From: an uncultured bacterium
Lineage (GTDB): Bacteria; Joyebacterota; Joyebacteria; Joyebacterales; Joyebacteraceae
Assembly: GCA_964516845.1 (NCBI GenBank)
Contig: CAZEXP010000005.1
Location: forward strand, 1,030 to 65,029
Direction of reading: 5' to 3'
DNA length: 64,000 nucleotides
Positions within the stretch are counted from its first letter, which is position 1. The number at the start of each line of letters is the position of its first letter. Made by a program: the position numbers and the translations under genes. The notes under the pieces are model-generated. The model worked only from the letters and a program-made list of their open reading frames with translations, did no database searches and was not told the origin of the DNA. Positions 11,766-64,000 of the stretch are shown piece after piece.

Positions 11766-11812
11766 GCGCTGGTGGAGGCGGACCGTCCGGCGGGCGGGCC
11801 GTTCGCCAGCGC
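11766..11812 (+). terminator. Long imperfect GC hairpin (terminator or transcript-stabilising stem)
   Basis: GCGCTGGTGGA pairs with TTCGCCAGCGC, plus an inner stem (about 21 bp in total, with G-U pairs); only a weak U-tract follows. Confidence 0.45.
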
Positions 11813-11872
11813 TTCTCACAGGCGGATGACCGCAGGTGGCCGAGCGTGGCTGTGGCCGGGCACAACGGGGGG

Positions 11873-31060: not shown

Positions 31061-31065
31061 CCGAT

Positions 31066-33254: not shown

Positions 33255-33274
33255 GGCGGGGGGAAGGAGACACC

Positions 33275-33992: not shown

Positions 33993-34400
33993 ATGACCAG
34001 GTGGCTCGTAATAGCTATCGCGGCTCTCTTCCTCGCGGTCGGGTGCGCGCCCGTACCGGAAGGCGGGGACCCCGCCACCGACGGGGAATTCGGCACCTTC
34101 TCTCTGATCGACCACGCCGTGGCGCAGGGGAGGATCGACTACTCGACGGGCATGCTCTACAAGATCTACGCGCAGTACGATCCGATGAGTCTTCCTGAGG
34201 AGTACCAGAGCGACGCCATCGGGATGGTAGGGGCCCCTCTCGTCACCGAGATCGAGCGGAACTGGCACCGGATCCTGCCGGAACACCGGGCTGAGATCTC
34301 CCAGTACATCGAGCATCTGCTCGACATCGACGACAGTGAGACACAGCTTGACGACGTGACGCCCGACCGCCTCGACCAGGAACGGAATCGGATTGACTGA
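33993..34400 (+). CDS. Hypothetical lipoprotein
   Basis: AGGAGG RBS before ATG 33993; lipobox LAVG-C. Confidence 0.7.
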   Translation: MTRWLVIAIAALFLAVGCAPVPEGGDPATDGEFGTFSLIDHAVAQGRIDYSTGMLYKIYAQYDPMSLPEEYQSDAIGMVGAPLVTEIERNWHRILPEHRAEISQYIEHLLDIDDSETQLDDVTPDRLDQERNRID

Positions 34401-36976: not shown

Positions 36977-37417
36977 GTGAGAGGGTTCCTTACGCGCGAT
37001 GAGCGCGCGGTCATCGCCTTTCTGGCGACGGCCACGGCAGTCGGGGCGATCGTGCTCGGTCTTCGGGGCGTCGACCCGGCACTTGTGCCGGATCTCGTTT
37101 CATCGGCCGGGACCGGGGTGGTGATCTCGGACGAACTCATTGACCGGACCGGACGCACGGAGCGGGCCGAGCAGGTCACGGGTCCCATCGACGTGAACGA
37201 GGCCACCGAGGAAGAACTGACGGGGCTGCCGGGGATCGGTCCCGCGAAGGCTGCGGCGATAGTGAGATACCGCGAGCGGCACGGTCGCTTCGCCTCGCTC
37301 GACGCTCTGCTCGATGTCAGCGGTGTCGGCCCCGCGACGCTCGATCGGCTTCGCCCGGTGGCGACTCTCGGGAGTGTGGAACCGCCCACCGAAGGACAGG
37401 TCAGGGAGGGACGATGA
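36977..37417 (+). CDS. comEA: ComEA-family helix-hairpin-helix DNA-binding protein
   Basis: N-terminal TM helix; IDVNEATEEELTGLPGIGPAKAAAIVRYR...VSGVGPATL. Confidence 0.9.
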   Translation: MRGFLTRDERAVIAFLATATAVGAIVLGLRGVDPALVPDLVSSAGTGVVISDELIDRTGRTERAEQVTGPIDVNEATEEELTGLPGIGPAKAAAIVRYRERHGRFASLDALLDVSGVGPATLDRLRPVATLGSVEPPTEGQVREGR

Positions 37418-39027
37418 GTATGGGGCTGGCGGCGGCACGCGGCATCATCGTTGGACGCCTGCTCGTCTCGGCCGCCGTGATCGCGGCGGCGCTGATGAGC
37501 GACGATATCTCGGTCACGCCCGTTGTCCTGCTGGGTATCGGCGTCGCGGCCCTGAGCGTCCCGCACGCCATCTGGTCACGCAAGCGTGGACGTGAGAGTC
37601 TGTGGCTTCTCGTGACGCTGTTCGTTGCCGATGTCGTGCTCGTGACCCTGATCGTGCTCTCGTCCGGCGGTCTGGCCAGTCCGTTCAAGCTTCTCTACTT
37701 CCTTCCGTTGATTGTCTCGTCGACGGCGCTTGGACCGAAGCCCGGCGCCATCGTGACGGTCTCGTCGCTTGCCGCGTTCGCCGCACTCTTCATCGCCGAG
37801 AGTCCCATGACCATGCGTTCGCACGGGGCCGGCATCCTGGCGGAGACGGCCGTTCTCGCGATCTCGCTCACGGTGGTCTCGATCCTCGTCGGCATCCTCT
37901 CGGCGCGCGTTCGCGAGGGAGAGAAGAAGCTGGGGGAGGTGGAGACCGCTCTCGAGGCGGCGCACGTCCACATCGACAATCTCATAGAGAGCATCCAGAG
38001 CGGTCTGGCGCTCTTCGACATGTCGGGCGGTCTTCTCTCACTGAACGAACGTGGTAGAGCCATTCTCGGCATGCCGGCGCCCGGAGCGCCGCGCGCGCAC
38101 TTCTCGGAGGTCTTCGCGGCGCAACCGGCTCTCGCCGAGCAGGTATCAGCCGCCGTGGAGCACGGGAAGACGGCGGAGCGCGTTGAACTCAGCGTCGAGC
38201 GAGCCGGCGGGACCGTTCCCGTCGGGCTCTCGACCTCGCTGCTCCGCGACGATGACGGAGTCGCCGCGGGTGTCATCATGATATTCCAGGACATCACCGA
38301 GGCGCGCCGTCAGGAGCTGGACAGGCTCCACGCGGACCGACTCGCGTCGCTCGGCCAGTTCGCGGCGGGCATGGCTCACGAGATCAGGAATCCACTGAAC
38401 GCCATCAAGGGGTCGGCCGAGATGCTTCGGGACGGTGTCGCAGCAGGGAGCGACGATGCGCGGCTGGTCGATCTGGTGATTCGGGAGAGCGACCGCCTCG
38501 CAACGCTCACCAACGACGTGCTCACCTACGGACGCGTCATGGGGCCGCCGACGGGAACCGTGTTCCTCGAAGCGCTGTTCAGGGAGGTTGAGGCTATCGC
38601 CCGGTCGCACCGGGCATTCGGGGACGGAATCGAGCTGGCGATGGATGACGGCGGGATCCGCTCGCGGGGGAACTCCGAGCAGCTCAAGCAGGTTCTTCTG
38701 AACCTCGTGGTCAACGGGATCGAGGCGATCGAGGAGACGGGTTCCGTCCGCGTCACCGCGGGTGTCGGGGGCGCCGTCTTTGCGAACGGGCGGAGCGGAA
38801 CGGACGACGAGATCGCCATCAGTGTCGTCGACACGGGCGTTGGGATGGAACGCGAGAGCCTCGAGCAGATGTTCGCGCCGTTCTGGACGACGAAGCAGAC
38901 CGGAACGGGCCTCGGACTCGCCATCGCCGACAGGCTTGTCGAGGCGCACGGCGGACGTATCGAGATCGAAACCGGGCCGGGGCAGGGCAGCCGGTTCGTC
39001 ATCTATCTTCCGAAGGCAAGAGACTAG
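37414..39027 (+). CDS. PAS-domain sensor histidine kinase (PilS-like)
   Basis: Multi-TM N-terminus, PAS domain, AHEIRNPL, LKQVLLNLVVN, DTGVGM and GTGLGL motifs. Confidence 0.92.
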   Translation: MSMGLAAARGIIVGRLLVSAAVIAAALMSDDISVTPVVLLGIGVAALSVPHAIWSRKRGRESLWLLVTLFVADVVLVTLIVLSSGGLASPFKLLYFLPLIVSSTALGPKPGAIVTVSSLAAFAALFIAESPMTMRSHGAGILAETAVLAISLTVVSILVGILSARVREGEKKLGEVETALEAAHVHIDNLIESIQSGLALFDMSGGLLSLNERGRAILGMPAPGAPRAHFSEVFAAQPALAEQVSAAVEHGKTAERVELSVERAGGTVPVGLSTSLLRDDDGVAAGVIMIFQDITEARRQELDRLHADRLASLGQFAAGMAHEIRNPLNAIKGSAEMLRDGVAAGSDDARLVDLVIRESDRLATLTNDVLTYGRVMGPPTGTVFLEALFREVEAIARSHRAFGDGIELAMDDGGIRSRGNSEQLKQVLLNLVVNGIEAIEETGSVRVTAGVGGAVFANGRSGTDDEIAISVVDTGVGMERESLEQMFAPFWTTKQTGTGLGLAIADRLVEAHGGRIEIETGPGQGSRFVIYLPKARD

Positions 39028-39053
39028 ACAGAGAGATTCCAGGGGAGGACGCC

Positions 39054-40427
39054 ATGCCACACGGGAGGATACTCGTCATCGATGACGAGGACAGCATCAG
39101 GGAGTATTTGTCCATGATGCTCGAGCGAGAGGGGTACGAGGTTCTGGCCGCGTCCGACGGGAAGAAGGCGGTGAAGCTGAGCAAACGCGAGAGCTTCGAC
39201 GCGGTTATCACCGACATCCAGCTTCCCGGCATGACGGGCATCGAGATCCTCGGCTCGTTCAAGGAGTCGGACCCGACGGTTCCCATTATCATCGTTACCG
39301 GGCATGCGTCGCAGGAATCGGCCATCGAGGCGCTCAATCTCGGGGCATTCTACTACCTCCTGAAGCCCGTCTCGAACGAAGAGCTCAAGCAGGTCGTCCG
39401 GAATGCTCTCGAGGTCAAGCAACTGCGGACCGAGAAGAACGATCTGGAACGCGCGCTCCACCCGAGCGCCGACCGTGACATGGTCGGTGACAGCGAGGGG
39501 CTCCACTCCGTATTCGATCTGATCGACCGCGTCGCGAGGACGGCGAGCACCGTCATGCTCAGGGGAGAGAGCGGCACGGGGAAGGAACTCGTGGCTCGCG
39601 CCATTCACGCGGGGAGCGTCCGGGCGGACCAGCGGTTCGTGTCGATCAACTGCGGGGCTCTGCCGGAGACGCTGCTCGAGAGCGAGCTCTTCGGGCATGT
39701 GAAGGGATCGTTCACGGGAGCCGTGCGCGACAAGCGCGGGCTGTTCGTCGTCGCGGACGGCGGGACGTTCTTTCTCGACGAGGTCGGGGAGACGTCGCTT
39801 GCCATCCAGGTGAAACTCCTCCGCGTGCTCCAGGAGCGCGAGGTCGTCCCGGTCGGCGGAACCAAGCCGACGAAGGTTGACGTCCGGGTCATCGCCGCGA
39901 CGAACGCCGATCTCGAGCTGGATGTGCAGGAAGGGAACTTCCGTGCGGACCTGTACTACCGTCTGAACGTCATCCCTATCACCATTCCGCCGCTTCGCGA
40001 CCGTCGCGACGACATCCCGCTGCTGGTAGAACACTTCCTGCAGAAGCTTGCTTCAGGGGAGAAGACGATCGCCGAGGGAGCGATGGACATTCTCACATCG
40101 TACGAGTGGCCGGGAAACGTGCGCGAGCTCGAGAATATCATCGAACGCGCGGTGATCCTCGCTGACGGCAGTGAGATCACCGCGGAGAGTCTCAACGTTT
40201 CGATCTTCCCCGAGCGTCTCCGGAAGCGGTCGCGGTCGACCGGAACGGGCGATCTGGGCGTCAGCGGGATCACGCTCGACGAACTCGAGCAGCGGTACCT
40301 GCTTCAGACGCTTGAGGAGACGAGCTGGAAGAAGAAGCAGGCGGCGGAGATCCTGGGGATCAACCCGTCGACGCTCTACAGGAAGCTCCAGCGCTACGGG
40401 ATGGAGGGCGATGTCGAGGATGACTAG
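39054..40427 (+). CDS. sigma54-dependent response regulator (NtrC/PilR family)
   Basis: Receiver domain, [33 protein letters not shown] and a Fis-type HTH. Confidence 0.95.
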
Positions 40428-50646: not shown

Positions 50647-51660
50647 GTGGGTTCGAGCAGGATCGAGATGGGCAGACTGAACGAGCTTCTCGGTGGTTTC
50701 GGCGACCGACGCGTTGCGATCCTGGGCGACGCGATGCTGGATCGCTACATATGGGGTGAGGTCAACAGGATCTCGCCCGAGGCTCCGGTCCCGGTCGTCG
50801 AGGTGCGCGACGAGACCATCCGGTTCGGCGGCGCGGCGAATGTGGCGGAGAACGTCGCAGCGCTGGGCGCGACAGCGGATGTCATCGGTGTGGTCGGGGA
50901 CGATGATCACGGCAGAGACCTCATGGGCCGTCTGGGGGCGCGCGGGGTCGGCGTCGGGCACCTTCTGACGGTCGACGGTCGACCGACGACCACTAAGACC
51001 CGGATCATCGCGCATAACCAGCAGATCGTGCGCGCCGACCGGGAGCATGCTCACGCGCTGGCCGAGGCGGCGGAGGACTCGCTCATCAAGTCGCTTCGCG
51101 AGGTCGTGCCGGTGTCGGACGTGCTCATCATCTCGGATTACGGGAAGGGAGTCGTCAGCGAGCGGACGCTCGAGGCGGCGCTCGGTGCTGCGCGAGACGG
51201 GGAGACGAAGGTCTGCGTCGACCCGAAGGAATCACACTTCTCCCGATACCTTGGAGTGACCGCGATCACGCCGAACCTCAAGGAGGCGGCGGGCGCCGTG
51301 GGATACGCGATGAGCAGCGATGACGATCTGCTCCGCGGGGGCTGGGAACTGCGCGAGCGACTGGACGCGGAGTGTGTCATCGTCACGCGCGGTGAACATG
51401 GCATGTCGCTGTTCATGCGGGGCGGCGAGTACGCGTACCTGCCGACGGTGGCTCGAGAGGTCTTCGATGTCACCGGCGCCGGCGATACGGTCGTCAGCGT
51501 TCTCGGCGTGGCGCTCGCGGCCGGTGCCTCGATGGTTGAGGCCGCGATGATCGCGAACCACGCTGCCGGTATCGTCATCCGGGAGATCGGCACGGCGTCG
51601 ATCACCGTTGACGAGATCCGTTGTTCATTCGAAGAACTCGAGGAGGTCGCCGGTGGGTAG
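50647..51660 (+). CDS. rfaE1: D-glycero-beta-D-manno-heptose-7-phosphate kinase
   Basis: RISPEAPVPV, GGAANVA, SDYGKG, VDPK and DVTGAGDTV motifs. Confidence 0.95.
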   Translation: MGSSRIEMGRLNELLGGFGDRRVAILGDAMLDRYIWGEVNRISPEAPVPVVEVRDETIRFGGAANVAENVAALGATADVIGVVGDDDHGRDLMGRLGARGVGVGHLLTVDGRPTTTKTRIIAHNQQIVRADREHAHALAEAAEDSLIKSLREVVPVSDVLIISDYGKGVVSERTLEAALGAARDGETKVCVDPKESHFSRYLGVTAITPNLKEAAGAVGYAMSSDDDLLRGGWELRERLDAECVIVTRGEHGMSLFMRGGEYAYLPTVAREVFDVTGAGDTVVSVLGVALAAGASMVEAAMIANHAAGIVIREIGTASITVDEIRCSFEELEEVAGG

Positions 51661-52144
51661 AGTGGTGTCGCGGGAAGAACTGTCGGCGGCGTGCGAGTCG
51701 GCGCGGCAGGCCGGCCGAACGGTCGTCTTCTCGAACGGGTGCTTCGACATCCTCCACCATGGGCACGTTGACTACCTCGCCAGGGCGAAGGCGCTTGGAG
51801 ATATTCTCGTCGTCGGTGTCAACACGGACGACTCGGTCCGCCGCCTCAAGGGACCAAGGCGCCCTATCGTCCCTGAGGACGACAGGGCGGCCGTCGTAGC
51901 CGCGCTCGGGGTCGTCGACTACGTGTGTCTTTTTCCTGAAGATACTCCCTACGAACTCATCGTAAGCATCACCCCTCACGTTCTCGTCAAGGGTGCCGGT
52001 TACTCCCGGGACACCATCGTTGGCGCGGACGTGGTCGAGGAAGCAGGTGGGCGGGTCGTGGCGATGGAGGCGCTTGAGGGCCACTCAACCCGCGGGATCG
52101 TCGCCCGTATTCACTCGCTCGGGGAGGATCGTCCGGAGGACTGA
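51653..52144 (+). CDS. rfaE2: D-glycero-beta-D-manno-heptose-1-phosphate adenylyltransferase
   Basis: FSNGCFDILHHGHVDYL, VGVNTDDSVRRLKG and VLVKG motifs. Confidence 0.95.
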   Translation: MGRVVSREELSAACESARQAGRTVVFSNGCFDILHHGHVDYLARAKALGDILVVGVNTDDSVRRLKGPRRPIVPEDDRAAVVAALGVVDYVCLFPEDTPYELIVSITPHVLVKGAGYSRDTIVGADVVEEAGGRVVAMEALEGHSTRGIVARIHSLGEDRPED

Positions 52145-52206
52145 CCGACTGCCCGCCGTTCGGGCGCGTTCAGGCGCCCTGAGGGTACGGAATGTTCCTT
52201 TGAGGG

Positions 52207-52235
52207 TGGACTCAGTTGAGGCGTTGGCGTATACT
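52207..52235 (+). promoter_or_regulatory. Candidate sigma70 promoter for the arcE-suc-kor-ndk-bfu operon
   Basis: TGGACT, 17-nt spacer, TATACT; would leave a ~220-nt leader. Confidence 0.55.
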
Positions 52236-52463
52236 CGCAGTCTTGTTTGCTTCGGGCCATCGGTCCGTGGCATGCGGTCGGCGGACCGGCCTGCCGGATG
52301 AACGACGGGCGTGCTCGCTGGCCTCTTTGATGACCTGGATCCCCCAGACAAGTGCGCTCCCCCGGGAGCGAGGCTGATGGGGGATTCGTGTGCGATGGCC
52401 GGGTGCGTCGCGGCCTTGTGGTGACGCAACGAAGCAACCTCGGCAACACCTGAGGGAGGATGA

Positions 52464-53774
52464 ATGGAGAGGCGACGAGTCATCATCATGGGCGCCGCTG
52501 GAAGAGACTTTCACAATTTCAATCTGGTCTATCGCGGTCACAAGGAATTCGAGGTCGTCGCGTTCACGGCCACGCAGATCCCGGACATCGACGGTCGAGC
52601 GTATCCGACCGTGCTAGCCGGTGAGCTCTACCCGAACGGGATCCCTATCCTCGCCGAAGAGGACCTTCCGAAGCTCATCAAGGAGCACAACGTCGACGAC
52701 GTCGTGTTCGCCTACAGCGACGTGTCTCACGAGTACGTGATGCACAAGGCATCGCTCGTCAACGCGTGCGGCGCGAACTTCCTGCTCCTGGGCGCGCACG
52801 AGACGATGATCAAGTCGAAGAAGCCCGTCATATCGATCTGCGCAACGCGCACGGGGTGCGGCAAGAGCCAGACGACGCGCCGCATTGCCGAGATCCTGCT
52901 CGAGGCGGGCAAGAAGGTCGTGGCCATCCGGCATCCGATGCCGTACGGCGACCTCAGCAAGCAGATCTGGCAGCGTTTCGCCAAGTACGACGACATGCTC
53001 AAGCACAAGTGCACGATCGAGGAGATGGAGGAGTACGAGCCGCACATCGACCGCGGCAACGTCGTCTACGCCGGTGTGGACTACGGCAGGATCCTCGAGG
53101 AGGCCGAGAAGGAGGCCGACGTCATTCTTTGGGACGGCGGCAACAACGACGCATCGTTCTACGCGTCGGACCTCTACATCGTCGTCGCCGACCCGCACCG
53201 TGCTGCGCACGGCCTGACGTACTACCCCGGCGAGCAGAACCTCCGGATGGCCGACGTGGTCATCATCAACAAGGAGGACTCTGCGACGCAGGCTCAGATC
53301 GATGAGATGGTCGACGTGATCAAGAGTCTCAACGACTCCGCCGTCATCATTCATGCCGATTCGCCCGTCACCTTCGAGGAGAACGTCGACCTCAAGGGCA
53401 AGCGCGTCCTCGTCGTCGAGGACGGGCCGACGCTCACGCACGGCGGCATGAAGATCGGCGCGGGCACTGTGGCCGCGGAGCGCGCCGGAGCCATTCTGGT
53501 CGACGCGCGCGAGCACGCCACCGGCAAGATCCGCGAGATGTACGAGAAGTACCCGCACATCGGCACGCTGCTGCCGGCCGCCGGGTACTCGGATGAGCAG
53601 ATCGCCGATCTGGAGAAGACGATCAACGCCGTGGACTGCGACTACGTCGTCGTCGGCACGCCGATCGATCTCCGCAAGGTCGTCAACATCAAGAGGCCGA
53701 GCGTTCGTGTCCGTTACGAACTCGGGGTGAAGGGCAGCCCGACGCTCGTGGATGTGCTCAAGGACTTCGTGTAG
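52464..53774 (+). CDS. COG2403 P-loop protein, likely arginine synthetase (ArcE-type); often annotated cyclic-2,3-diphosphoglycerate synthase
   Basis: VIIMGAAGRDFHNFN, VVAFTATQIP, RTGCGKSQTTR, RHPMPYG, CTIEEMEEYEPH, WDGGNND and EDGPTLTHG motifs. Confidence 0.75.
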   Translation: MERRRVIIMGAAGRDFHNFNLVYRGHKEFEVVAFTATQIPDIDGRAYPTVLAGELYPNGIPILAEEDLPKLIKEHNVDDVVFAYSDVSHEYVMHKASLVNACGANFLLLGAHETMIKSKKPVISICATRTGCGKSQTTRRIAEILLEAGKKVVAIRHPMPYGDLSKQIWQRFAKYDDMLKHKCTIEEMEEYEPHIDRGNVVYAGVDYGRILEEAEKEADVILWDGGNNDASFYASDLYIVVADPHRAAHGLTYYPGEQNLRMADVVIINKEDSATQAQIDEMVDVIKSLNDSAVIIHADSPVTFEENVDLKGKRVLVVEDGPTLTHGGMKIGAGTVAAERAGAILVDAREHATGKIREMYEKYPHIGTLLPAAGYSDEQIADLEKTINAVDCDYVVVGTPIDLRKVVNIKRPSVRVRYELGVKGSPTLVDVLKDFV

Positions 53775-53801
53775 ATCCCGCTTCGGGGTCAGGAGGATCA
53801 C

Positions 53802-54937
<1,136 letters not shown>

Positions 54938-54941
<4 letters not shown>

Positions 54942-55810
54942 GCATCTTCATCGATGAGAGAACGCGCGTCTGCGTCCAGGGGATGACCGGTCGGGACGGC
55001 TCGTTCCACACGGGAGCGATGATCGAGTACGGTACGCATGTCGTGGCGGGCGTCACGCCCGGGAAGGGCGGACAGAACCTCGGCGGCGTTCCGGTATTCA
55101 ATACGGTCCGCGAGGCGGTCGTCGAGACCGGCGCCAACGCCACGATCATCTTCGTCCCCGCGAGATTCGCGGCCGACGCGGCGCTCGAGGCCGCGGAGTC
55201 GGGTGTCGAACTCATCGTATTCATCACGGAGGGCGTTCCTACGCTCGACGCGATGCGGCTCTACCAGCGGACGAAGGAACTCGGGGTGAGGATGATCGGT
55301 CCCAACTGCCCCGGTCTCATCAGTCCGGGGAAGGCGAAGCTCGGGATCATGCCGGGCGCGATCCATACGCGCGGGCAGATAGGCGTTGTCTCCCGGAGCG
55401 GAACGCTGACGTATGAGGTCGTCGACAGCCTCAGGCGCGGTGGCGTCGGGCAGTCGACCGTCATCGGTATCGGGGGAGACCCGATCATCGGGACGACGTT
55501 CATCGACACGCTCGAGGCATTCGAGAAGGACGAGGGAACTACGGCCGTCGTCCTCATCGGTGAGATAGGCGGAACCGATGAGGAGCAGGCGGCGGAGTTC
55601 ATCAGGGAACACATGACGAAGCCGGTCGTCGGTTTCATCGCCGGGCGGACGGCGCCCCCGGGACGCAGGATGGGTCACGCGGGAGCCATCATCGCGGGCG
55701 GCAGAGGGACGGCCGAGGAGAAGATCAAGGCGCTATCGGACGCCGGCGTACCGGTCGCGGACCGGCCGAGCGAGATCCCCGGACTCCTCCGGGCGACGCT
55801 TGGGAGGTAG
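54938..55810 (+). CDS. sucD: Succinyl-CoA synthetase alpha subunit
   Basis: [30 protein letters not shown] and RMGHAGAII (phospho-His) motifs. Confidence 0.97.
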
Positions 55811-55811
55811 C

Positions 55812-56123
55812 ATGGAGAAGAATGCGGCGAAGGCCGCACCGCGGAGAGCCTGGAACTACCCCGCTCGGGATGAGCACCCCGAGAGAGAGGTCTTCGTATA
55901 CGACGCGTGGTGTAAGGGCTGCGGGCTCTGCTACGAGTTCTGTCCGACGGGCGTGTTCACGTCGGACCGCACCGGTCGCCCCGTCGTGTCGAATCCCGAC
56001 AAGTGCATCTCGTGCTATCTCTGCGAGAAGCTCTGTCCCGACATGGCGATCACTGTCTACAAGGAACGCAAGAAGAAGAGCGTCGAGGCACCGAACGGCG
56101 CCGCCGGCGGGGAGGGGTCCTGA
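55812..56123 (+). CDS. 2x[4Fe-4S] ferredoxin-like delta subunit of 2-oxoacid:ferredoxin oxidoreductase
   Basis: WCKGCGLCYEFCP and CISCYLCEKLCPDMAI motifs. Confidence 0.9.
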   Translation: MEKNAAKAAPRRAWNYPARDEHPEREVFVYDAWCKGCGLCYEFCPTGVFTSDRTGRPVVSNPDKCISCYLCEKLCPDMAITVYKERKKKSVEAPNGAAGGEGS

Positions 56124-56124
56124 C

Positions 56125-57276
56125 ATGTCCGCAAACCGGAGCAAGGACGTCAAGGTCCTCCAGGGGAACGAGGCCTGTGCCATTGGAGCGGTCGCGGCCG
56201 GCGTGAACTTCTTCGCGGGCTATCCGATCACACCGTCCTCCGAGGTCGCCGAGTTCATGGCGCGGCATCTCCCGCTGATCGGTGGCAGGTTCATCCAGAT
56301 GGAGGACGAGATCGCCTCGATCGCCGCGATCATCGGCGCGTCGATCGCGGGTTCGCGGTCGATGACGGCGACGAGCGGTCCGGGTTTCTCGCTCATGCAG
56401 GAGAACATCGGTCTCGCCTGTCTCGCGGAGATCCCGTGCGTCATCGTCAACGTGATGCGCGCGGGGCCCTCGACCGGTCTGCCGACGCAGCCGGCGCAGG
56501 CGGACGTCATGCAGGCGCGCTGGGGAACGCACGGCGATCACTCGATCATCGCGCTGGCCCCTTCGACCGTGCTCGAGTGTATCGAGCTGACGGTCCAGTG
56601 CGTCAGTCTCTCGGAGAAGTACCGGACGCCCACTCTGCTGCTGCTCGATGAGGTCATCGGGCACATGCGCGAGAGCGTCACGCTGCCGGCTCCCGGGTCG
56701 TACCACTGCGAGAGCCGCAGAACGCCGGACCCGGACCTGGCCGACTACTGCCCGGCCGCGTGCGAGGGGGACGAGGTAGCGCCGCTGGGGCGCTTCGGCG
56801 GCCCGCACCGCTTCCACGTCACGGGTCTGACGCACGACCCGCACGGGTTCCCGACGATGGTGCCCTCCGAGGTCGATCGGAAGATCCACTGGATCGTCGA
56901 CAAGATCGAGTCGCGCGCCGACGAACTCGCCATGAACGATGAGTTCATGACGGACGACTGCGACGTCCTCCTTTTCGCATACGGATCGACCGCGCGCGTC
57001 GCGAAAGCGTCCGTGCGGGAGCTCCGGGAGCAGGGTGTGAAGGCGGGGCTTCTCAGGGTGAAGACCATCTGGCCGTTCTCGAGCAAGCGACTGGGCGAGC
57101 TCGCCCCGCAGCTTCGGGGCATCGTCGTTCCCGAAATGAACATGGGACAGCTCGTGCTCGAGGTCGAGCGGGCCATCTGTGGCAGGACGCCGGTCAGGCA
57201 TCTCGGTCGCGTCGACGGCAGGCTGTTCACGCCCGATCAGATAACCGACTTTGTCACGGAGGAACTGAGCGCATGA
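56125..57276 (+). CDS. 2-oxoacid:ferredoxin oxidoreductase alpha subunit (KorA-like)
   Basis: GNEA, FAGYPITPSSE, QMEDEIAS, TATSGPGFSLMQE and RAGPSTGLPT motifs; true start is ATG 56125. Confidence 0.95.
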   Translation: MSANRSKDVKVLQGNEACAIGAVAAGVNFFAGYPITPSSEVAEFMARHLPLIGGRFIQMEDEIASIAAIIGASIAGSRSMTATSGPGFSLMQENIGLACLAEIPCVIVNVMRAGPSTGLPTQPAQADVMQARWGTHGDHSIIALAPSTVLECIELTVQCVSLSEKYRTPTLLLLDEVIGHMRESVTLPAPGSYHCESRRTPDPDLADYCPAACEGDEVAPLGRFGGPHRFHVTGLTHDPHGFPTMVPSEVDRKIHWIVDKIESRADELAMNDEFMTDDCDVLLFAYGSTARVAKASVRELREQGVKAGLLRVKTIWPFSSKRLGELAPQLRGIVVPEMNMGQLVLEVERAICGRTPVRHLGRVDGRLFTPDQITDFVTEELSA

Positions 57277-58178
57277 GCCAGGCGATAGAGACAGCGCGGA
57301 CGTATCTCAAGCCGCACAAGAAGCTGCCGACGGTCTGGTGCGGGGGCTGCGGCCTCGGCGTCATCATGAGCAGTTTTCTACGGGTGATCTCGAAGATGGA
57401 GATCCCGAAGAACGACATCGCGACCGTGTCCGGCATCGGGTGCACCGGTCGCATGCCGACCTATGTTGATTCGAACACACTGCACACGACACACGGGCGG
57501 GCGCTCGCGTTCGCGACGGGCGTGAAGCTTGCCAACCCGAAGCTCACCGTTATCACGGTGATGGGAGACGGCGACGCGCTGGCGATCGGCGGCAACCATT
57601 TCATTCATGCGTGCCGTCGCAATATCGATATCACCGCGATCGTCGCGAACAACTGCATCTACGGCATGACCGGGGGGCAGTACTCCCCGACGACGCCGCA
57701 CGGCAAGCGCGGCACGACAGCGCCGTACGGCAACGTGGAGCATGAGTTCGACGCATCAAGGCTGGCTGCCGGCGCGGGCGCATCGTTCGTGGCCCGGACA
57801 TCCGTCTATCACGTCCGTGAGCTTGACAAGCTCATCGAGCAGGCGATCAGGCATCGCGGGTTCTCGGTCGTCGAGGTAATGAGCAACTGCTATACGAGCT
57901 ACGGAAGGCTGAACAACTACAAGTCGCCGGTGGACATGTTCCGGTGGATGAAGAACAGCTCGGTGACGCTCAGGCAGGCCGAGGGGATGTCGCCGGAGGA
58001 ACTCGAGGGCAAGTTCACACGCGGTGTGTTCGTGGAGAATTACATGCCCGAGTTCATCCAGGTGTACGATGAACTCGCGGAGCGGTTGACGAGCGACTCG
58101 GCGAGCGCAGCGGCACATCTGCGGGAGACCGTCGAGCGGTACGAGCGACTGGGAGACCGACTGAAGGCAGTCGGCTAG
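57273..58178 (+). CDS. 2-oxoacid:ferredoxin oxidoreductase beta subunit (TPP-binding)
   Basis: WCGGCG, SGIGC, HGRA and GDGD...NN..YGMTGGQ motifs. Confidence 0.95.
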   Translation: MSQAIETARTYLKPHKKLPTVWCGGCGLGVIMSSFLRVISKMEIPKNDIATVSGIGCTGRMPTYVDSNTLHTTHGRALAFATGVKLANPKLTVITVMGDGDALAIGGNHFIHACRRNIDITAIVANNCIYGMTGGQYSPTTPHGKRGTTAPYGNVEHEFDASRLAAGAGASFVARTSVYHVRELDKLIEQAIRHRGFSVVEVMSNCYTSYGRLNNYKSPVDMFRWMKNSSVTLRQAEGMSPEELEGKFTRGVFVENYMPEFIQVYDELAERLTSDSASAAAHLRETVERYERLGDRLKAVG

Positions 58179-58245
58179 CGTCTGTCGGCGAAGCGGCCGC
58201 CTCAGGGCCCGTGGGCCGGGGCGGCTCAGCAGCGAGGGTGCACAC

Positions 58246-58806
58246 GTGACGAAGAGTGGGGGAAGGTTCGAGGTTCGCCTCTCGGGGTCCGGTGGTCAGG
58301 GGCTGATGTTGGCCGGGAAGCTCCTGGCGGAGGCGTCGTCCGTCTACGATGGCAAGAACACGGTGCAGACGCAGAGCTACGGACCGGAGGCTCGCGGCGG
58401 CAAGAGCAAGACCGATGTTGTGATCTCGACCGAGGAGATCGACTACCCGAAAGCGACGAAGGTCGACGTTCTCCTGGCGATGACGCAGGTGGCGGCCGAC
58501 GAGTATGCCGACTCTCTCAAGGACGGCGGACTGATGATCGTCGACTCCTATCTCGTTGAGACGGTCAGTCGCGACGGAGCCATCCATATCCCGTTCACGA
58601 TGCTTGCGGTCGAGCACTGCGGCAGGATGCTGTTCGCGAACGTTGTCGCGCTGGGAGCGATTGTCGAACTGACGGGCGTCGTCGAGTGGGAGAGCCTGTC
58701 GAAGGCGGTCATGGCCCGCGTGCCGGAGGGCACCGAGGAACTCAACCAGAAGGCGCTGGACGTCGGGCGCGAGGCAGCAGTGAAGGCAAGGGAGAAAGCC
58801 AATTGA
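58246..58806 (+). CDS. 2-oxoacid:ferredoxin oxidoreductase gamma subunit
   Basis: SGSGGQG, QSYGPEARGG and NVVALGA motifs. Confidence 0.93.
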   Translation: MTKSGGRFEVRLSGSGGQGLMLAGKLLAEASSVYDGKNTVQTQSYGPEARGGKSKTDVVISTEEIDYPKATKVDVLLAMTQVAADEYADSLKDGGLMIVDSYLVETVSRDGAIHIPFTMLAVEHCGRMLFANVVALGAIVELTGVVEWESLSKAVMARVPEGTEELNQKALDVGREAAVKAREKAN

Positions 58807-59228
58807 CGGACAGAACGTTCCTGATGGTCAAGCCGCGCGCCGTGCGTGAAGGGCTGACAGGTCCGATCCTCGCAGAACTCGAGAAGGGTGGATTTCGCAT
58901 CATCGGACTTGCGTCCCGCGGGCTCACCAGCGACGAGGCGCACATCTTCTATGATGTCCACGTGGGCAAGCCGTTCTTCGACACGCTCCTCGAGTTCGTG
59001 ACCTCCGGCATGACGGTCGGCGTGCTGCTCGAGGCGCCGGATGCGGTGCCGGCGCTCCGCGCGTTCGTCGGCGCGACCGATCCGGAGAAGGCGGAGCCCG
59101 GGACGATCAGAGCGACATACGGCAGGAGCCTTACGCAGAACGCGGTGCACGCTTCGGACTCGCCCGAGCGTGTCACACACGAGTCTGCGATCCACTTCGG
59201 CGATTGCCCGAGGACGATAGTAGCGTAG
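58803..59228 (+). CDS. ndk: Nucleoside diphosphate kinase
   Basis: TTG start overlaps the previous TGA; HVGKPFF, GAT...PGTIRA and NAVHASDS motifs. Confidence 0.92.
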   Translation: MTDRTFLMVKPRAVREGLTGPILAELEKGGFRIIGLASRGLTSDEAHIFYDVHVGKPFFDTLLEFVTSGMTVGVLLEAPDAVPALRAFVGATDPEKAEPGTIRATYGRSLTQNAVHASDSPERVTHESAIHFGDCPRTIVA

Positions 59229-59257
59229 CTCCCCCCGGGGGAGAGCGCGGAGGGACA

Positions 59258-59749
59258 ATGGAGAACACGGTGGTTCAGGACGGGGCGATGGCCGGATTCC
59301 TCGAGGCGGCGGACGAGGTCGCCGCGGAGTATGTGGGCCGACGCGGGAGCGTCATCCCCGTACTTCAGAAGGTTCAGGAGCGCATCGGATACCTGCCGCC
59401 CGAGGTCATGAAGCGCATCGGTGAGCGGCTCGGTGTCCCGCCGGCTCAGATCTTCGGTGTCGCCAGCTTCTACGCGCAGTTTCGGATGGAACCCGTCGGC
59501 CGGTACATCGTCAAGGTCTGCCACGGGACCGCGTGCCACGTACAGGGAGCGGGCACCATCACGGACGCGATCTGTGATGAACTCGGTGTGGCCGATGGCG
59601 CGACGACCGAGGACGGGAAGTTCACGGTGGAATCGGTCGCCTGCCTCGGATGCTGCAGTCTCGCGCCTGTTATCATGGTCGAGGGCAAGACCTACGGCCG
59701 GCTGACGCCGGACGAGGCGCGCAAGATCGTCAGGGAGTACGGCGACTGA
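59258..59749 (+). CDS. NuoE/HydC-like [2Fe-2S] subunit (Bfu-family C subunit)
   Basis: IPVLQKVQERIGYLP, VASFYAQF, VCHGTACH and VACLGCCSLAPV motifs. Confidence 0.93.
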   Translation: MENTVVQDGAMAGFLEAADEVAAEYVGRRGSVIPVLQKVQERIGYLPPEVMKRIGERLGVPPAQIFGVASFYAQFRMEPVGRYIVKVCHGTACHVQGAGTITDAICDELGVADGATTEDGKFTVESVACLGCCSLAPVIMVEGKTYGRLTPDEARKIVREYGD

Positions 59750-59789
59750 GAAGCGTTGCACGCCCCGGGAGTGCTCCCGGGGGCGCGGC

Positions 59790-61613
59790 GTGAAGCGACA
59801 CATACGATTCACCCGGAGAGAGATGATGGCGAAGACAGGCGCGACCGTTGAGGTCACCGTCGGGCTCTCGAGCTGCGGCATTGCCGCGGGGGCGGCCGAC
59901 GTCTTCAGCGCGTTCCAGCGGGAGTTCGAGGAGAAGGGTGTGGACGCCCGCCTCCGGCGCACCGGATGTGTCGGCATGTGCTACCGGGAGCCGATCGTCG
60001 ACATCGTGACCCGTGGGGGCGCGAAGTACACGTACGGAGGGATCACCGCGGACCAGGTGGGACGGGTCGTGGAGGAGCACGTCGTCGGCGGGAAGCCGAT
60101 CGACGAGTGGCTGGTGCGCGCGGATGACAGAGAGCTTCCCGACGAGTCGTACTACTCGCAGCAGGTCCGCCTCGTTCTTCGCAACGCCGGCGTCATCGAT
60201 CCGGAGTCGATCGACGAGTACATCGAGGTCGGCGGCTACGCGGCGCTCACGAAGGTCATCAAGGAGATGTCACCGGACGGCGTCATTGAGGAGATCAAGG
60301 CTTCCGGCCTCCGCGGCCGCGGAGGCGCGGGCTTCCCGACCGGGATCAAGTGGGGTCTCGCCAAGAAGGCGCAGGGCGACGAGAAGTACGTCATCGTCAA
60401 CGCCGACGAAGGCGATCCGGGCGCTTTCATGGACCGGAGCATACTCGAGGGTGATCCGCACGCGGTCCTCGAGGGACTCGTGATCGCGGCGTACACCATC
60501 GGCGCGCAGGAAGGCTACTTCTACGTCCGCGCCGAGTACCCGCTCGCGATCAAGCGTCTGAGGATCGCCATCGAGGACGCGACCGAACGCGGCTATGTCG
60601 GCGAGAACATCCTCGACTCCGGCTTCTCCTTCAACGTGCACATCAAGGAGGGCGCCGGGGCATTCGTCTGCGGCGAGGAGACGGCGCTCATCGCGTCCAT
60701 CGAGGGGCAGCGCGGCATGCCGCGGCTCCGTCCCCCGTATCCGGCGGTCAAGGGTCTCTGGGGCAAGCCGACGAACAACAACAACGTCGAGACCTACGCG
60801 AACATCCCGTGGATCATCGCCAACGGTGCGGCCGCCTACGCCGCGTACGGCACCGAGACGAGCAAGGGAACCAAGGTCTTCGCGCTCGCGGGGAAGATCA
60901 CGCGCGGCGGACTCGTCGAGGTCCCGATGGGGCTGACGATCCGGCAGGTCATCGAAGAGGTCGGCGGGGGCGTCCCCGAGGGGCGTTCGTTCAAGGCCGT
61001 TCAGCTCGGCGGTCCGTCGGGCGGATGCGTGCCGACCGAGTTCATGGACATTCCTATCGACTACGAGTCGATCACGAAGACGGGCGCCATCATGGGGTCG
61101 GGCGGCATGGTCGTCATGGACGACTCGACGTGCATGGTCGATATCGCCCGGTTCTTCCTGAACTTCACGCAGGACGAGAGCTGCGGGAAGTGCACATTCT
61201 GTCGCGTCGGGACGAAGCGGATGCTCGAGATCCTCGAACGCATCACATCGGGCGAGGGGCGCGAGGGCGACATCGAGCTCCTCGTCGAACTCGGAGAGAA
61301 GATCATCAGCTCGTCGCTCTGCGGTCTCGGACAGTCGGCCCCGAATCCGGTCCTGACGACCATCAAGTACTTCCGGGATGAGTACGAGGCACACATCAAC
61401 GAGAAGCGATGCCCCGCGCTGTCGTGCAAGGCGCTGATCACCTACGAGATCGATCCCGACAAATGCATCGGGTGCACCGTTTGCGCGAAGAAGTGTCCGG
61501 TCGGCGCGATCACCGGCGAGCGCAAGAAGACACACACGATCGACCACGACCTCTGCACCAAGTGCGACGCCTGCAGACAGGCATGCAAGTTCGACGCCGT
61601 GACGGTCCGCTAG
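59790..61613 (+). CDS. NuoF/HydB-like FMN/NADH subunit (Bfu-family B subunit)
   Basis: N-terminal thioredoxin-like Fe-S domain, GLRGRGGAGFP, ADEGDPGAFMDR, GAFVCGEET, SCGKCTFCR and a C-terminal 2x[4Fe-4S] domain; the start may be 59823. Confidence 0.94.
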   Translation: MKRHIRFTRREMMAKTGATVEVTVGLSSCGIAAGAADVFSAFQREFEEKGVDARLRRTGCVGMCYREPIVDIVTRGGAKYTYGGITADQVGRVVEEHVVGGKPIDEWLVRADDRELPDESYYSQQVRLVLRNAGVIDPESIDEYIEVGGYAALTKVIKEMSPDGVIEEIKASGLRGRGGAGFPTGIKWGLAKKAQGDEKYVIVNADEGDPGAFMDRSILEGDPHAVLEGLVIAAYTIGAQEGYFYVRAEYPLAIKRLRIAIEDATERGYVGENILDSGFSFNVHIKEGAGAFVCGEETALIASIEGQRGMPRLRPPYPAVKGLWGKPTNNNNVETYANIPWIIANGAAAYAAYGTETSKGTKVFALAGKITRGGLVEVPMGLTIRQVIEEVGGGVPEGRSFKAVQLGGPSGGCVPTEFMDIPIDYESITKTGAIMGSGGMVVMDDSTCMVDIARFFLNFTQDESCGKCTFCRVGTKRMLEILERITSGEGREGDIELLVELGEKIISSSLCGLGQSAPNPVLTTIKYFRDEYEAHINEKRCPALSCKALITYEIDPDKCIGCTVCAKKCPVGAITGERKKTHTIDHDLCTKCDACRQACKFDAVTVR

Positions 61614-61622
61614 CTTCGTCGA

Positions 61623-61645
61623 CGGGGTCCGTGCCACGGACCCCG
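61623..61645 (+). other. Intra-operon GC hairpin
   Basis: CGGGGTCCGT-gcc-ACGGACCCCG. Confidence 0.6.
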
Positions 61646-61674
61646 CGGGAACCGGCTTCCAGGAGAGTTCAAAC

Positions 61675-64000
61675 GTGGCACTCGTAAACATGACACTGAA
61701 CGGCACCGATGTGCAGGTCGAGTCGGGGATGACCATCCTCGAGGCGGCGAGCGCGAACGGCATCCGGATCCCGACGCTCTGCCACGACGAGCAACTCGAG
61801 CCGTTTGCATCCTGCTGGATCTGCGCCGTCAAGCTCGAGGGCATGAAACGGTACGTCCCGTCCTGCGGCACGAAGGTTGCCGAGGGGATGAAGGTCTGGA
61901 CGGACACCGAGGACGTTCGCGCCGTCAGACGGATGGCGCTCGAGCTCCTGCTCTCGAATCACCGCGGCGATTGCGTTGCCCCGTGCAAGGAGGCGTGCCC
62001 AGCGAGCGTTGACGTCCAGGGGTACATCGCTCTCATCGCTCAGGGGAGATACCGCGACGCGACGAAGCTGGTCAAGCAGGTCAATCCGTTCCCGCTCTCC
62101 ATCGGCCGCGTCTGCACGCGCCCGTGCGAGGGGGAGTGCCGGCGGAACGCGGTCGACGGACCGGTCTGCATTGATTACCTGAAGCGGTTCGCCGCCGACT
62201 GGGACATCTCACACCCGGATCCCTACTCGCCGCCGGTCGCACCTCCCAGCGGTCACAAGGTCGCCGCCGTAGGCGCCGGTCCAGCGAGCCTGACCGCCGC
62301 GTACTACCTGGCGCAGGCCGGACACGCCGTGACGATCTTCGAGGCGCTTCCCGATCCGGGCGGCATGCTCCGCTACGGCATTCCAGAGTACCGGCTGCCG
62401 AAGCGCACGCTCGACGACGAGATCGGTCTGATCACGGGGCTCGGTGTCGACGTGAAGTACGGGCAAAGGCTGGGATGCGATTTCACGCTCAGTGACCTGT
62501 TCGATCAGGGCTACGAGGCGGTCTTCCTGGGGCTCGGCGCGATGGCGAGCCGCAAGATGCGCTGTCCGGGCGAGGAGCTTGACGGCGTCTGGGCGGGCAC
62601 GGACTTCCTCGGGAAGATGGGCCTCAACGATCCGCCCGCGGTCGGCAGGCACGTCGCCATCATCGGCGGCGGCAACACCGCGGTCGATGCCGCACGGACG
62701 AGCCTGAGGCTCGGCGCCGAGAAGGTGACCATCGTCTACCGGCGCTCCCGCAAGGAGATGCCGGCGTGGGATGTCGAGGTCGACGCGGCGGAGGAGGAGG
62801 GGGTCGAGATGCACTTCCTCGCCGCGCCGACGAAGATCGAAGGCGACGGCAGGTGTGAGCGTCTCGAATTCATCCGCATGGAGCTCGGTGAGCCCGACGA
62901 GAGCGGCCGTCGTCGTCCGGTCCCCGTCGAGGGTTCCGAGTCGGTCATAGATGTCGACAACGTCATCGCGGCCATCGGCCAGCTTCCGAATCTCGACTGC
63001 ATCCAGAAGACGGCGGAGAAGGATCCCGACTCGCTCGAGGCGAAGCTCGGATTGACGCACTGGGGCACGATCATCGCCGACGAGAGGTCCGGGCTGACCG
63101 CGGTTCCCGGCGTCTTCGCCGGAGGCGATGTGGTCAACGGCGCCGCCACGGCCATCGAGGCCATCGCGGCCGGTGGACGCGCGGCCGCGGCCATCATTCG
63201 CATGTTCCGCGGCGAGGCGGTCGACGCCGTCCCGCCGTACTTCAACATTCAGGAGGAACGCTGGGACAGTTTCCCCGCGGAGGAACTCGCGGATGTCGTC
63301 CGCCAGGAGCGCCAGGAGATGCCGGAGCTTCCGGTCGCCGAGCGCATCAAGACCCTGGATGAGGTCGAACTGGGGCTCACCGAGGAGCAGGCGCTCGAAG
63401 AGACGAAGCGCTGTCTCGAGTGCGGTTGTGCCGAGGGGTTCAGCTGTCAGCTTCGGGATTACGCGGCCGAGTACGGTGTCACACTTGGGCGTTTCAGCGG
63501 CGAGGTCGTTTCGGACCCGCCGGACGAGCGCCATCCGTTCATCCGCATCGAGCCGGAGAAGTGCATCATGTGCGGCCGGTGTATCCGCATCTGTCAGGAT
63601 GTTCAGGGCGCATCGGCGCTCGGGTTCTACCGGCGCGGTTTCGTCGCTCAGATGAAGCCCGCGCTGTGCGAGCCGCTGGCGCAGACCGACTGTGAGTCCT
63701 GCGGCCAGTGTGTCGAGTCGTGCCCGACCGGCGCGCTCACTGCGAAGCCCGTGGCCGTCAAGCCGGGTCCGTGGGATCTCGTGTCGACGGTGTCAACATG
63801 CGGCTTCTGCGGCACGGGGTGCTCTGTCGATCTCTGCACGGTGGCGGGAGACCTTGTTTCCATCGCTCCCGCTTCGGGAGTCGGTGTGAACGAGGGCAAC
63901 CTCTGTGTCCGCGGACGGTTCGGATTCCGTGGGGCGCTCGGCGAGAGGATCACGGCGCCGCGCGTCAAGGGGAGCGAGTCATCGTGGGATCGTGCGCTCG
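61675..64000 (+). CDS. Partial NfnA/SfrB-like subunit: NuoG-type [2Fe-2S] + GltD-type FAD/NADPH domain + ferredoxin + start of a molybdopterin-oxidoreductase-like domain
   Basis: Absent from the ORF track because it has no stop in the window. I translated it from GTG 61675 after AGGAGA: IPTLCH...CWIC, APCKEACP, GRVCTRPCEGECRR, VGAGPAS, IGGGNTAVDAAR, CIMCGRCIRIC, CESCGQCVESCP, CGFCGTGC, LCVRGRFG. Confidence 0.93.
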   Translation, partial: MALVNMTLNGTDVQVESGMTILEAASANGIRIPTLCHDEQLEPFASCWICAVKLEGMKRYVPSCGTKVAEGMKVWTDTEDVRAVRRMALELLLSNHRGDCVAPCKEACPASVDVQGYIALIAQGRYRDATKLVKQVNPFPLSIGRVCTRPCEGECRRNAVDGPVCIDYLKRFAADWDISHPDPYSPPVAPPSGHKVAAVGAGPASLTAAYYLAQAGHAVTIFEALPDPGGMLRYGIPEYRLPKRTLDDEIGLITGLGVDVKYGQRLGCDFTLSDLFDQGYEAVFLGLGAMASRKMRCPGEELDGVWAGTDFLGKMGLNDPPAVGRHVAIIGGGNTAVDAARTSLRLGAEKVTIVYRRSRKEMPAWDVEVDAAEEEGVEMHFLAAPTKIEGDGRCERLEFIRMELGEPDESGRRRPVPVEGSESVIDVDNVIAAIGQLPNLDCIQKTAEKDPDSLEAKLGLTHWGTIIADERSGLTAVPGVFAGGDVVNGAATAIEAIAAGGRAAAAIIRMFRGEAVDAVPPYFNIQEERWDSFPAEELADVVRQERQEMPELPVAERIKTLDEVELGLTEEQALEETKRCLECGCAEGFSCQLRDYAAEYGVTLGRFSGEVVSDPPDERHPFIRIEPEKCIMCGRCIRICQDVQGASALGFYRRGFVAQMKPALCEPLAQTDCESCGQCVESCPTGALTAKPVAVKPGPWDLVSTVSTCGFCGTGCSVDLCTVAGDLVSIAPASGVGVNEGNLCVRGRFGFRGALGERITAPRVKGSESSWDRAL

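Follow-up and report, generated by a model that had tools for sequence, protein, structure and literature searches.

Gene content and layout of the cluster

The 64,000-nt stretch of contig CAZEXP010000005.1 from an uncultured bacterium, hereafter called the window, ends in a cluster of 11 consecutive plus-strand genes (52464-64000), which in order are an arcE-like gene, sucC, sucD, korD, korA, korB, korC, ndk, nfnC, nfnB and nfnA (Table 1), with junctions ranging from -4 to +73 nt. A preliminary description made from the sequence alone had reported 11 co-oriented genes with 4-nt overlaps at three of the junctions, and this is borne out by the gene calls: all three overlaps are real, and the identities proposed for the genes agree with profile, PDB or fold searches in 11/11 cases. 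The location given at that time also stands, and it is the extent of ~11.5+ kb that needs revision: nfnA starts at GTG 61675 and runs past the end of the window, with only its 5' 775 codons lying before position 64000, and since the full-length NfnA product of the same genome (P0121) has 1241 aa, the stop codon is placed near 65400 and the cluster measures ~12.9 kb.

Two start sites deserve comment. The 484-aa open reading frame at 55822-57276 is a composite artefact: its first 101 codons, which would encode an Arg/Ser/Pro-rich stretch, lie out of frame on top of korD, and the true korA start is ATG 56125. For nfnB, the ATG start used by relatives gives the 595-aa product which they also have, and the alternative GTG start gives 607 aa. 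It should also be noted that the plus strand carries almost every gene of the window and that the flanks of the cluster are collinear in relatives as well, which makes co-orientation and conserved gene order weaker evidence here.

Table 1. Genes, promoter, leader and hairpins of the cluster, with window positions and the distance from each gene to the next
Feature	Position	Strand	Description	Profile and structure matches	Junction to next gene
Promoter	52207..52235	+	sigma-70-like, TGGACT-17-TATACT; sole promoter-like site found in 51000-64000		
5' leader	52242..52463	+	about 220 nt; helix P1, variable inner hairpin, second hairpin, ribosome binding site GGGAGGA		
arcE-like	52464..53774	+	436 aa, predicted P-loop enzyme of the arginine synthetase (TK2200/COG2403 'predicted GTPase') family		+27 nt
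Hairpin	53774..53790	+	GC-rich, directly after arcE stop, no U-tract		
sucC	53802..54941	+	ADP-forming succinate-CoA ligase beta, 379 aa	NF001913, 519 bits vs cut-off 370; Pfam ATP-grasp_2 and Ligase_CoA	4-nt overlap (54938-54941)
sucD	54938..55810	+	succinate-CoA ligase alpha, 290 aa	NF004230, 440 bits vs cut-off 336	+1 nt
korD	55812..56123	+	2x[4Fe-4S] delta subunit, 103 aa	Fer4 domains; best NCBIfam OGOR_delta and OorD, both under cut-off	+1 nt
korA	56125..57276	+	2-oxoacid:ferredoxin oxidoreductase alpha, 383 aa	NF006412, 533 bits vs cut-off 411	4-nt overlap (57273-57276)
korB	57273..58178	+	thiamine pyrophosphate (TPP)-binding beta subunit, 301 aa	Pfam TPP_enzyme_C	+67 nt
Hairpin	58195..58226	+	GC-rich, between korB and korC, no U-tract		
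korC	58246..58806	+	gamma subunit, 186 aa	PF01558 POR; best NCBIfam 2-oxoacid:ferredoxin oxidoreductase gamma subunit	4-nt overlap, TTGA (58803-58806)
ndk	58803..59228	+	nucleoside-diphosphate kinase, 141 aa; TTG start overlaps korC stop (TTGA)	PF00334, 140 bits	+29 nt
nfnC	59258..59749	+	NuoE/HydC-like [2Fe-2S] subunit, 163 aa	PDB 9BOV_C (1.3e-54), 9N5U_C NfnC, 8OH5_A	+73 nt with ATG 59823 (start used by relatives); +40 nt with GTG 59790
Hairpin	59763..59782	+	GC-rich, between nfnC and nfnB, no U-tract		
nfnB	59823..61613	+	NuoF/HydB-like FMN/NADH subunit, C-terminal 2x[4Fe-4S], 595 aa	PDB 9BOV_B (6e-270), 8OH5_B, 9N5U_B NfnB	+61 nt
Hairpin	61623..61645	+	GC-rich, between nfnB and nfnA, no U-tract		
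nfnA	61675..64000	+	5' 775 codons of a 1241-aa product	PDB 9BOV_A (4.6e-220), 8OH5_C, 9N5U_A	

Assignment of the encoded enzymes

Both subunits of SucCD score over the NCBIfam equivalog cut-offs (Table 1), and at the equivalog level the enzyme is an ADP-forming succinyl-CoA synthetase. The delta (2x[4Fe-4S]), alpha, beta (TPP) and gamma subunits of a 2-oxoacid:ferredoxin oxidoreductase (KOR) are all encoded together, and the length and position of korD are unchanged in relatives. Best PDB matches of KorA are 1YD7, 8YS5_A (2-oxoglutarate synthase alpha) and 6N2N, and that of KorB is 8YS5_C (2-oxoglutarate ferredoxin oxidoreductase beta, E=1.5e-84). Family, nearest solved structures (8YS5, 6N2N) and the adjacency to sucCD suggest that KorDABC acts on 2-oxoglutarate.

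Judged by sequence, architecture and cluster ligands, nfnCBA encodes a Bfu-type Nfn transhydrogenase, in agreement with the preliminary description: for all three subunits the best PDB matches are to subunits of solved complexes (Table 1), and the ligands of cluster A7 are kept. In the NfnA of Caldicellulosiruptor (Csac) this cluster has an unusual Cys3-Lys ligation by C108, C147, C151 and K170, and in a gap-free alignment of residues 1-180 the four ligands are found at identical positions in the NfnA studied here. The protein is built from a 2Fe-2S N-terminal domain, an NfnL/GltD-like FAD-NADPH domain, an Fe-S linker and a vestigial Fdh/NuoG-like domain (Pfam Fer2_4, Fer4_20, Pyr_redox_2, Fer4_Nqo3 and Molybdop_Fe4S4). 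In the full-length P0121, PF00384 is present and PF01568 (the C-terminal pterin-binding domain) is absent, and the catalytic Cys/Sec-His dyad of formate dehydrogenases aligns to Gly-Glu; with the dyad replaced and PF01568 missing, the formate dehydrogenase-like part is taken to be vestigial, which is also the case in the solved enzyme. The direction of the reaction (ferredoxin and NADH to NADPH) would be that of the Caldicellulosiruptor enzyme.

A role of nfnA as NAD(P)-linked formate dehydrogenase, which was suggested by the Molybdop_Fe4S4 and Molybdopterin domains and by the JGI name "formate dehydrogenase major subunit", was rejected on account of the same two absences and of the best matches being NfnA/StnA. 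Several NfnA homologs (P0127 and others) carry this public name though the catalytic dyad is missing, and the name looks misleading.

The first gene is predicted to encode a member of the arginine synthetase ArcE family, based on fold, annotation and neighbours as described for TK2200, a P-loop protein with an LpxK-like fold, low cpgS similarity and a GTPase annotation, the homologs of which often adjoin arcB or arcC (Michimori et al., PMC11032458). The product of the window gene has a Walker A motif GCGKS at residues 131-135 which is invariant in the alignment of homologs, has no NCBIfam model and a weak CobW Pfam match, and in PDB sequence searches gave a single match, to cpgS (9SXB, 2e-5), which is weak and limited to a local stretch; the same search returned no ArcE entry. 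With an AlphaFold2 model (pLDDT 88.5), Foldseek placed cpgS on top (8ORU/8ORK, 1e-16), followed by LpxK (4EHX, 4e-8). Homologs are publicly named "predicted GTPase", "GTPase" or "cyclic 2,3-diphosphoglycerate synthase". In two independent samples the commonest neighbours of ArcE homologs were carbamate kinase, which adjoins the homolog in 15/73 and 27/80 loci, and ornithine carbamoyltransferase (OTC), with OTC-like genes nearby in 12/73 and 13/80 loci; representatives of these neighbours exceed the arcC and OTC equivalog cut-offs. By analogy, the first gene would catalyse arginine + ADP + Pi <-> citrulline + NH3 + ATP. No Thermococcus sequence was found among the best 80 of >595 ArcE matches in the genome-contig scan.

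A cyclic 2,3-diphosphoglycerate synthetase was considered for the first gene and rejected, as the sequence similarity to cpgS is only local and weak. This name, as given to close homologs of the family (P0005, P0019), also looks misleading.

Promoter, leader and intergenic hairpins

Upstream of the arcE-like gene lies a sigma-70-like promoter (Table 1), of which the -35 TGGAC and the -10 TAnnnT are preserved in 9/9 members of the lineage described in the next section. It is followed by the leader, in which positions 52337-52346 (GGAUCCCCCA) pair with 52378-52387 (UGGGGGAUUC) to form the 10-bp helix P1. This helix is preserved in 9/9 lineage sequences, among which G-U wobbles occur and the terminal pair has undergone two double changes. 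Rfam gave no match for the leader or elsewhere in the window, and when 75 sources were searched with a covariance model of the leader, the nine sequences used to train it were the sole matches; the motif is unique within the window and was seen only upstream of arcE in this lineage. The leader is a candidate for a new, lineage-specific cis-regulatory RNA, for which the covariation is thin.

No U-tract terminator was found in any intergenic gap, nor was there an internal sigma-70-like promoter in the cluster up to 64000. The short junctions, including the three 4-nt overlaps, are present in the eight lineage loci tabulated (the window and seven relatives). There are four GC-rich hairpins without U-tract, situated after arcE, korB, nfnC and nfnB, and relatives have hairpins of differing sequence at the same junctions, which for arcE/sucC is the case in 8/8 of the tabulated loci. 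The nfnB/nfnA hairpin shows compensatory changes between the window (GGGGUCCG/CGGACCCC) and the relative L002 (GGAGCCCG/CGGGCUCC). The free energies of the hairpins are not significant when compared with shuffled sequences, and their weight comes from positional conservation only. They may act as stabilisers, attenuators or U-less terminators, and probably tune the stability of segments or allow partial read-through rather than define separate operons.

The preliminary description had called the block a single operon and had named internal promoters or terminators, as well as the genes beyond 64000, as worth a look. The spacing, the one conserved upstream promoter and the lack of both sigma-70-like internal sites and U-tracts agree with a single operon, and the conserved U-less GC hairpins in four gaps may speak against it. 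Past the end of the window nfnA is completed, and in a relative with 95% NfnA identity the next genes are rpmF-plsX-fab, separated from nfnA by 120 nt that include a promoter-like site.

Conservation within the lineage and in other phyla

The 11 genes have an identical order in nine distinct loci, i.e. the window and eight relatives (L088, L002, L001, L172, L170, L171, L003 and L004), with 70-95% ArcE identity; no further close relatives were present among the ArcE matches listed in the genome and metagenome contig scans. The closest named relatives of this lineage are Candidatus Eisenbacteria, and the sources are aquatic and marine-sediment metagenomes. Lineage relatives also share the upstream flank obg-dprA-...-hldE (including an lpxL-like gene) and have rpmF-plsX-fabHDG-acpP-fabF-rnc downstream, and as these flanks are equally collinear, the conservation of order within the lineage is not specific to the operon. 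The cluster genes of L003 (11408-21175) are fragmented (sucC 332 aa, korA 275 aa, nfnB and nfnA in pieces), which suggests assembly frameshifts and not decay. In L088 (19462-23557), rpmF-plsX-fab-rnc is followed by genes for an acyl-CoA dehydrogenase and for EtfB and EtfA, the latter with a ferredoxin domain at its N-terminus. Bifurcating Etf/acyl-CoA dehydrogenase systems are typically arranged in this way, and EtfBA is also encoded near arcE in L140.

More distant homologs were sampled from genome and metagenome contig scans, which gave at least 161 distinct loci with 59-68% ArcE identity, and the 68 of these in which the sequence extends 9 kb or more downstream were used for counting genes on the same strand and downstream of arcE. 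Carbamate kinase was the most frequent (22/68 loci), followed by sucCD and ndk (13/68 each), OTC (12/68) and korAB (5/68), with nfnCB in a single locus (1/68). For a single-copy gene pair placed randomly in a genome of roughly 3 Mb, we estimate that well under 1/68 would be expected. The sub-cluster arcE-(carbamate kinase)-sucCD-(korDABC)-ndk recurs in several other phyla, mostly of the Fibrobacteres-Chlorobi-Bacteroidetes (FCB) group, often with a gene for L-glutamate gamma-semialdehyde (P5C) dehydrogenase upstream. The preliminary description had left it to synteny searches whether the arrangement is unique, and it is not, given the nine distinct lineage members and the sub-cluster in other phyla.

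There are at least five architectures, in which carbamate kinase may directly follow arcE, P5C dehydrogenase may directly precede it, and kor may come behind either sucD or carbamate kinase. They include hldE-arcE-sucCD-ndk in Fibrobacteraceae and Krumholzibacteriia, P5C dehydrogenase-arcE-arcC-sucCD-ndk in Marinimicrobia and others, arcE-arcC-(CCA enzyme)-sucCD-korDABC-ndk in Zixibacteria and others, and arcE-arcC-korDABC-ndk, and nearly all have rpmF/plsX/fab downstream. In a neighbour-joining tree of ArcE the sucCD-linked genes do not fall in one clade, the resolution being poor at about 60% identity. From these comparisons it appears that arcE-sucCD-ndk is an old neighbourhood in a syntenic backbone (hldE ... 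rpmF-plsX-fab) of several mostly FCB-group phyla, into which the catabolic genes arcC, P5C dehydrogenase and kor have been placed repeatedly, and that the addition of nfnCBA is specific to the lineage of the window. We count the association of arcE with sucCD, ndk and kor in favour of the interpretation given below, as it would reflect functional linkage beyond descent.

Proposed function and alternative explanations

On balance, we consider it somewhat more likely than not that the 11-gene, ~12.9-kb cluster is expressed mainly from the one conserved promoter at 52.2 kb with its structured leader, and that it groups ATP-yielding and electron-handling steps of anaerobic amino acid catabolism. 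ArcE, if the family assignment is correct, would convert arginine, ADP and Pi to citrulline, NH3 and ATP; KorDABC would turn glutamate-derived 2-oxoglutarate into succinyl-CoA and CO2 with reduction of ferredoxin (as suggested by family, structures and sucCD adjacency); SucCD would release succinate from succinyl-CoA with formation of ATP (from its equivalog assignment); and Ndk would equilibrate the nucleotide pools (assigned at family level). NfnCBA would then use reduced ferredoxin, NADH and 2 NADP+ to form 2 NADPH, provided that it works in the direction of the Caldicellulosiruptor enzyme. With regard to its origin, an older arcE-(arcC)-sucCD-ndk upstream of rpmF-plsX-fab may have received korDABC after sucD and nfnCBA after ndk, which would make the cluster a lineage-specific elaboration in an Eisenbacteria-like lineage of the FCB group.

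Other parts of the window are in keeping with such a metabolism. The hutU and hutI genes and two separate genes for glutamate formiminotransferase (ftcD) and cyclodeaminase are located at 29396-33901, and hutU, hutI and ftcD are present where hut genes had been noted earlier (29.4-33.9 kb); no hutH was identified in the window. The region 6580-15073 encodes a gingipain-like C25 peptidase of 1356 aa, an outer-membrane protein resembling PorV, and an FG-GAP protein of 1075 aa that bears a type IX secretion system sorting domain at its C-terminus. These type IX secretion parts point to a protein-degrading organism of the FCB group, and the secreted C25 peptidase together with hutU-hutI-ftcD fits a peptide-degrading lifestyle.

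There are several points which weigh against this interpretation. None of arcB, arcC, ornithine aminotransferase, P5C dehydrogenase or glutamate dehydrogenase is encoded in the 64-kb window, so that of the route from histidine and arginine through glutamate and 2-oxoglutarate to succinate put forward in the preliminary description, what stands is a plausible scheme with comparative support, the genes for these connecting steps being absent from the window. KOR, SucCD, ArcE and Nfn are all reversible. The specificity of KorDABC for 2-oxoglutarate is inferred, as the scores with 2-oxoglutarate-specific NCBIfam models are under the curated cut-offs (alpha 400 vs 579, beta 326 vs 364, delta 47 vs 125), with KorA passing the generic alpha model (533 vs 411), and the first gene was likened to TK2200 through the published description of that protein. 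With regard to expression, the promoter scan covered the sigma-70 consensus only, the conserved hairpins after arcE, korB, nfnC and nfnB could be U-less terminators, and the public RNA data consist of a single 215-nt RNA contig, on korB. Finally, the arcE-sucCD-ndk-fab backbone and the collinear housekeeping flanks indicate that the conservation of gene order is partly a matter of inheritance.

The last point leads to the most serious alternative, which we nevertheless regard as rather unlikely, namely that the cluster is a housekeeping neighbourhood kept collinear by descent, in which arcE, sucCD-korDABC-ndk and nfnCBA are separate units, SucCD and KOR serve a general (branched) tricarboxylic acid cycle, and Nfn supplies NADPH for biosynthesis, for example by the adjacent fab genes. 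This would account for the flanks (obg, dprA, lpxL-like and hldE on one side, rpmF-plsX-fab-rnc on the other) having the same order in relatives, with hldE and fab retained across phyla, and it is consistent with the plus-strand bias of the window, with the hairpins being found exactly where modules meet (behind arcE, ahead of the nfn genes and among them) and with nfnCBA being tied to arcE in this lineage only. It does not explain why overlapping or 1-nt junctions bind sucD-korD-korA-korB and korC-ndk, nor does it sit well with the lack of internal promoter-like sites and U-tract terminators, and the repeated insertion of arcC, P5C dehydrogenase and kor in differing architectures argues for functional attraction.

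We think it improbable that the genes form a biosynthetic or reductive module instead, in which KOR would act as 2-oxoglutarate synthase fed by succinyl-CoA from SucCD and by ferredoxin reduced by Nfn from NADPH, with ArcE consuming ATP in arginine synthesis (citrulline + NH3 + ATP -> arginine). The reversibility of all four enzyme systems would allow this, the hldE and fab neighbours are biosynthetic, and a biosynthetic role of ArcE has been raised for organisms lacking argininosuccinate synthetase and lyase (PMC11032458), but the links of the family with carbamate kinase and the catabolic P5C dehydrogenase, as well as the hut operon and secreted peptidase in the window, favour catabolism, and no other marker of a reductive tricarboxylic acid cycle (ATP-citrate lyase, fumarate reductase) is present in the window. 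There is likewise only a small chance that the first gene is not an arginine synthetase, being a member of the same P-loop superfamily with another substrate tied to the metabolism of succinyl-CoA or of nucleotides, which would account for the linkage to sucCD and ndk and would fit the lack of an NCBIfam model, the weak CobW match, the comparison with TK2200 by description and the arcE genes beside sucCD without arcC or arcB in this lineage and three others, but which is at odds with a family that is 59-68% identical across Bacteria and Archaea among the matches listed (making a single function likely), with carbamate kinase immediately following the gene in 9 to 12 sucCD/kor-linked loci (the number varies with the length of downstream sequence considered), and with the annotations, fold relatives (cpgS, LpxK) and arcB/arcC neighbourhood, which match the reports on ArcE.

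Returning to the catabolic interpretation, a further-reaching version of it is possible, although we advance it as doubtful: arcE-arcC-sucCD-korDABC-ndk, with P5C dehydrogenase upstream, might be a supercluster for substrate-level phosphorylation that in several phyla, mostly of the FCB group, serves a dedicated fermentation of arginine to succinate with a yield of as many as three ATP for each arginine, and to which the Eisenbacteria-like lineage would have added a Bfu-type Nfn for the re-oxidation of ferredoxin and a new riboswitch-like leader controlling the whole unit. If the catabolic interpretation is right, the recently described ArcE reaction would gain a metabolic setting in uncultured sediment bacteria, in which carbon from arginine and glutamate goes to succinate with ATP formed at every thioester or carbamoyl/guanidino step and the electrons of ferredoxin go to NADPH by way of a Bfu-type Nfn, and this would help to explain the low-energy-yield life of peptide-degrading FCB-group lineages. 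The occurrence of arcE beside sucCD could then serve as a simple genomic marker for the trait. Each of the enzymes is a new member of a known family, and it is the arrangement of which we found no description; known enzymology is left unchanged, and the value lies in pathway context and regulation.

Other features of the window

After the hut genes, positions 37414-40427 encode a PAS histidine kinase and a sigma-54 activator. Two large open reading frames without Pfam match, at 17386-21099 (1237 aa) and 34393-36867 (824 aa), are candidate genes.

Comparison with known systems

The preliminary description had not recognised the gene combination as a described unit, and we likewise found no paper which describes it: neither the linkage of arcE to sucCD, kor and ndk across phyla nor the addition of nfnCBA was found in the literature, and the main texts of PMC11032458 and PMC13260591 do not contain the arcE-sucCD/kor/ndk/nfn linkage. 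With the ArcE-ArcB-ArcC pathway of Thermococcus kodakarensis (PMC11032458; PMC13260591) the cluster shares the widely distributed P-loop family, the homologs neighbouring arcC or arcB, and the prospect of extra ATP from arginine, whereas here arcB and arcC are neither adjacent nor in the window, and arcE is joined to sucCD, korDABC, ndk and nfnCBA instead.

The Bfu-type NfnABC/Stn enzymes (Caldicellulosiruptor saccharolyticus 9BOV/9BP5, Sporomusa ovata 8OH5 and the archaeal 9N5U), which like the ArcE pathway were characterised recently, give the best matches for all three subunits, with the same three-domain build of NfnA including the pterin-less formate dehydrogenase-like remnant and the Cys3-Lys A7 cluster, and the same FMN/NADH core and C-terminal 2x[4Fe-4S] of NfnB. 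They differ from the predicted system described here in that our genes have the order C-B-A and are located directly behind a ferredoxin-reducing KOR and ndk. Similarly, KorDABC/OorDABC with succinyl-CoA synthetase, as in the amino acid catabolism of Thermococcales and in anaerobic branches of the tricarboxylic acid cycle, has the same four subunits and an ADP-forming CoA ligase partner which conserves the thioester as ATP, and the combination of a 2-oxoacid:ferredoxin oxidoreductase with such a ligase is an established energy-conserving route in Thermococcus (PMC11032458), but in the window the genes are physically joined, with 1 nt between sucD and korD and overlaps at korA-korB and korC-ndk. 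The yceD-rpmF-plsX-fab operon neighbourhood, finally, has its counterpart in the rpmF-plsX-fab genes that follow the cluster in this lineage, as they follow arcE-sucCD-ndk in other, mostly FCB-group phyla, although the rpmF-plsX-fab unit has its own promoter-like site and lies outside the cluster, and its presence downstream both in the lineage and in other phyla places the cluster within an old syntenic backbone.

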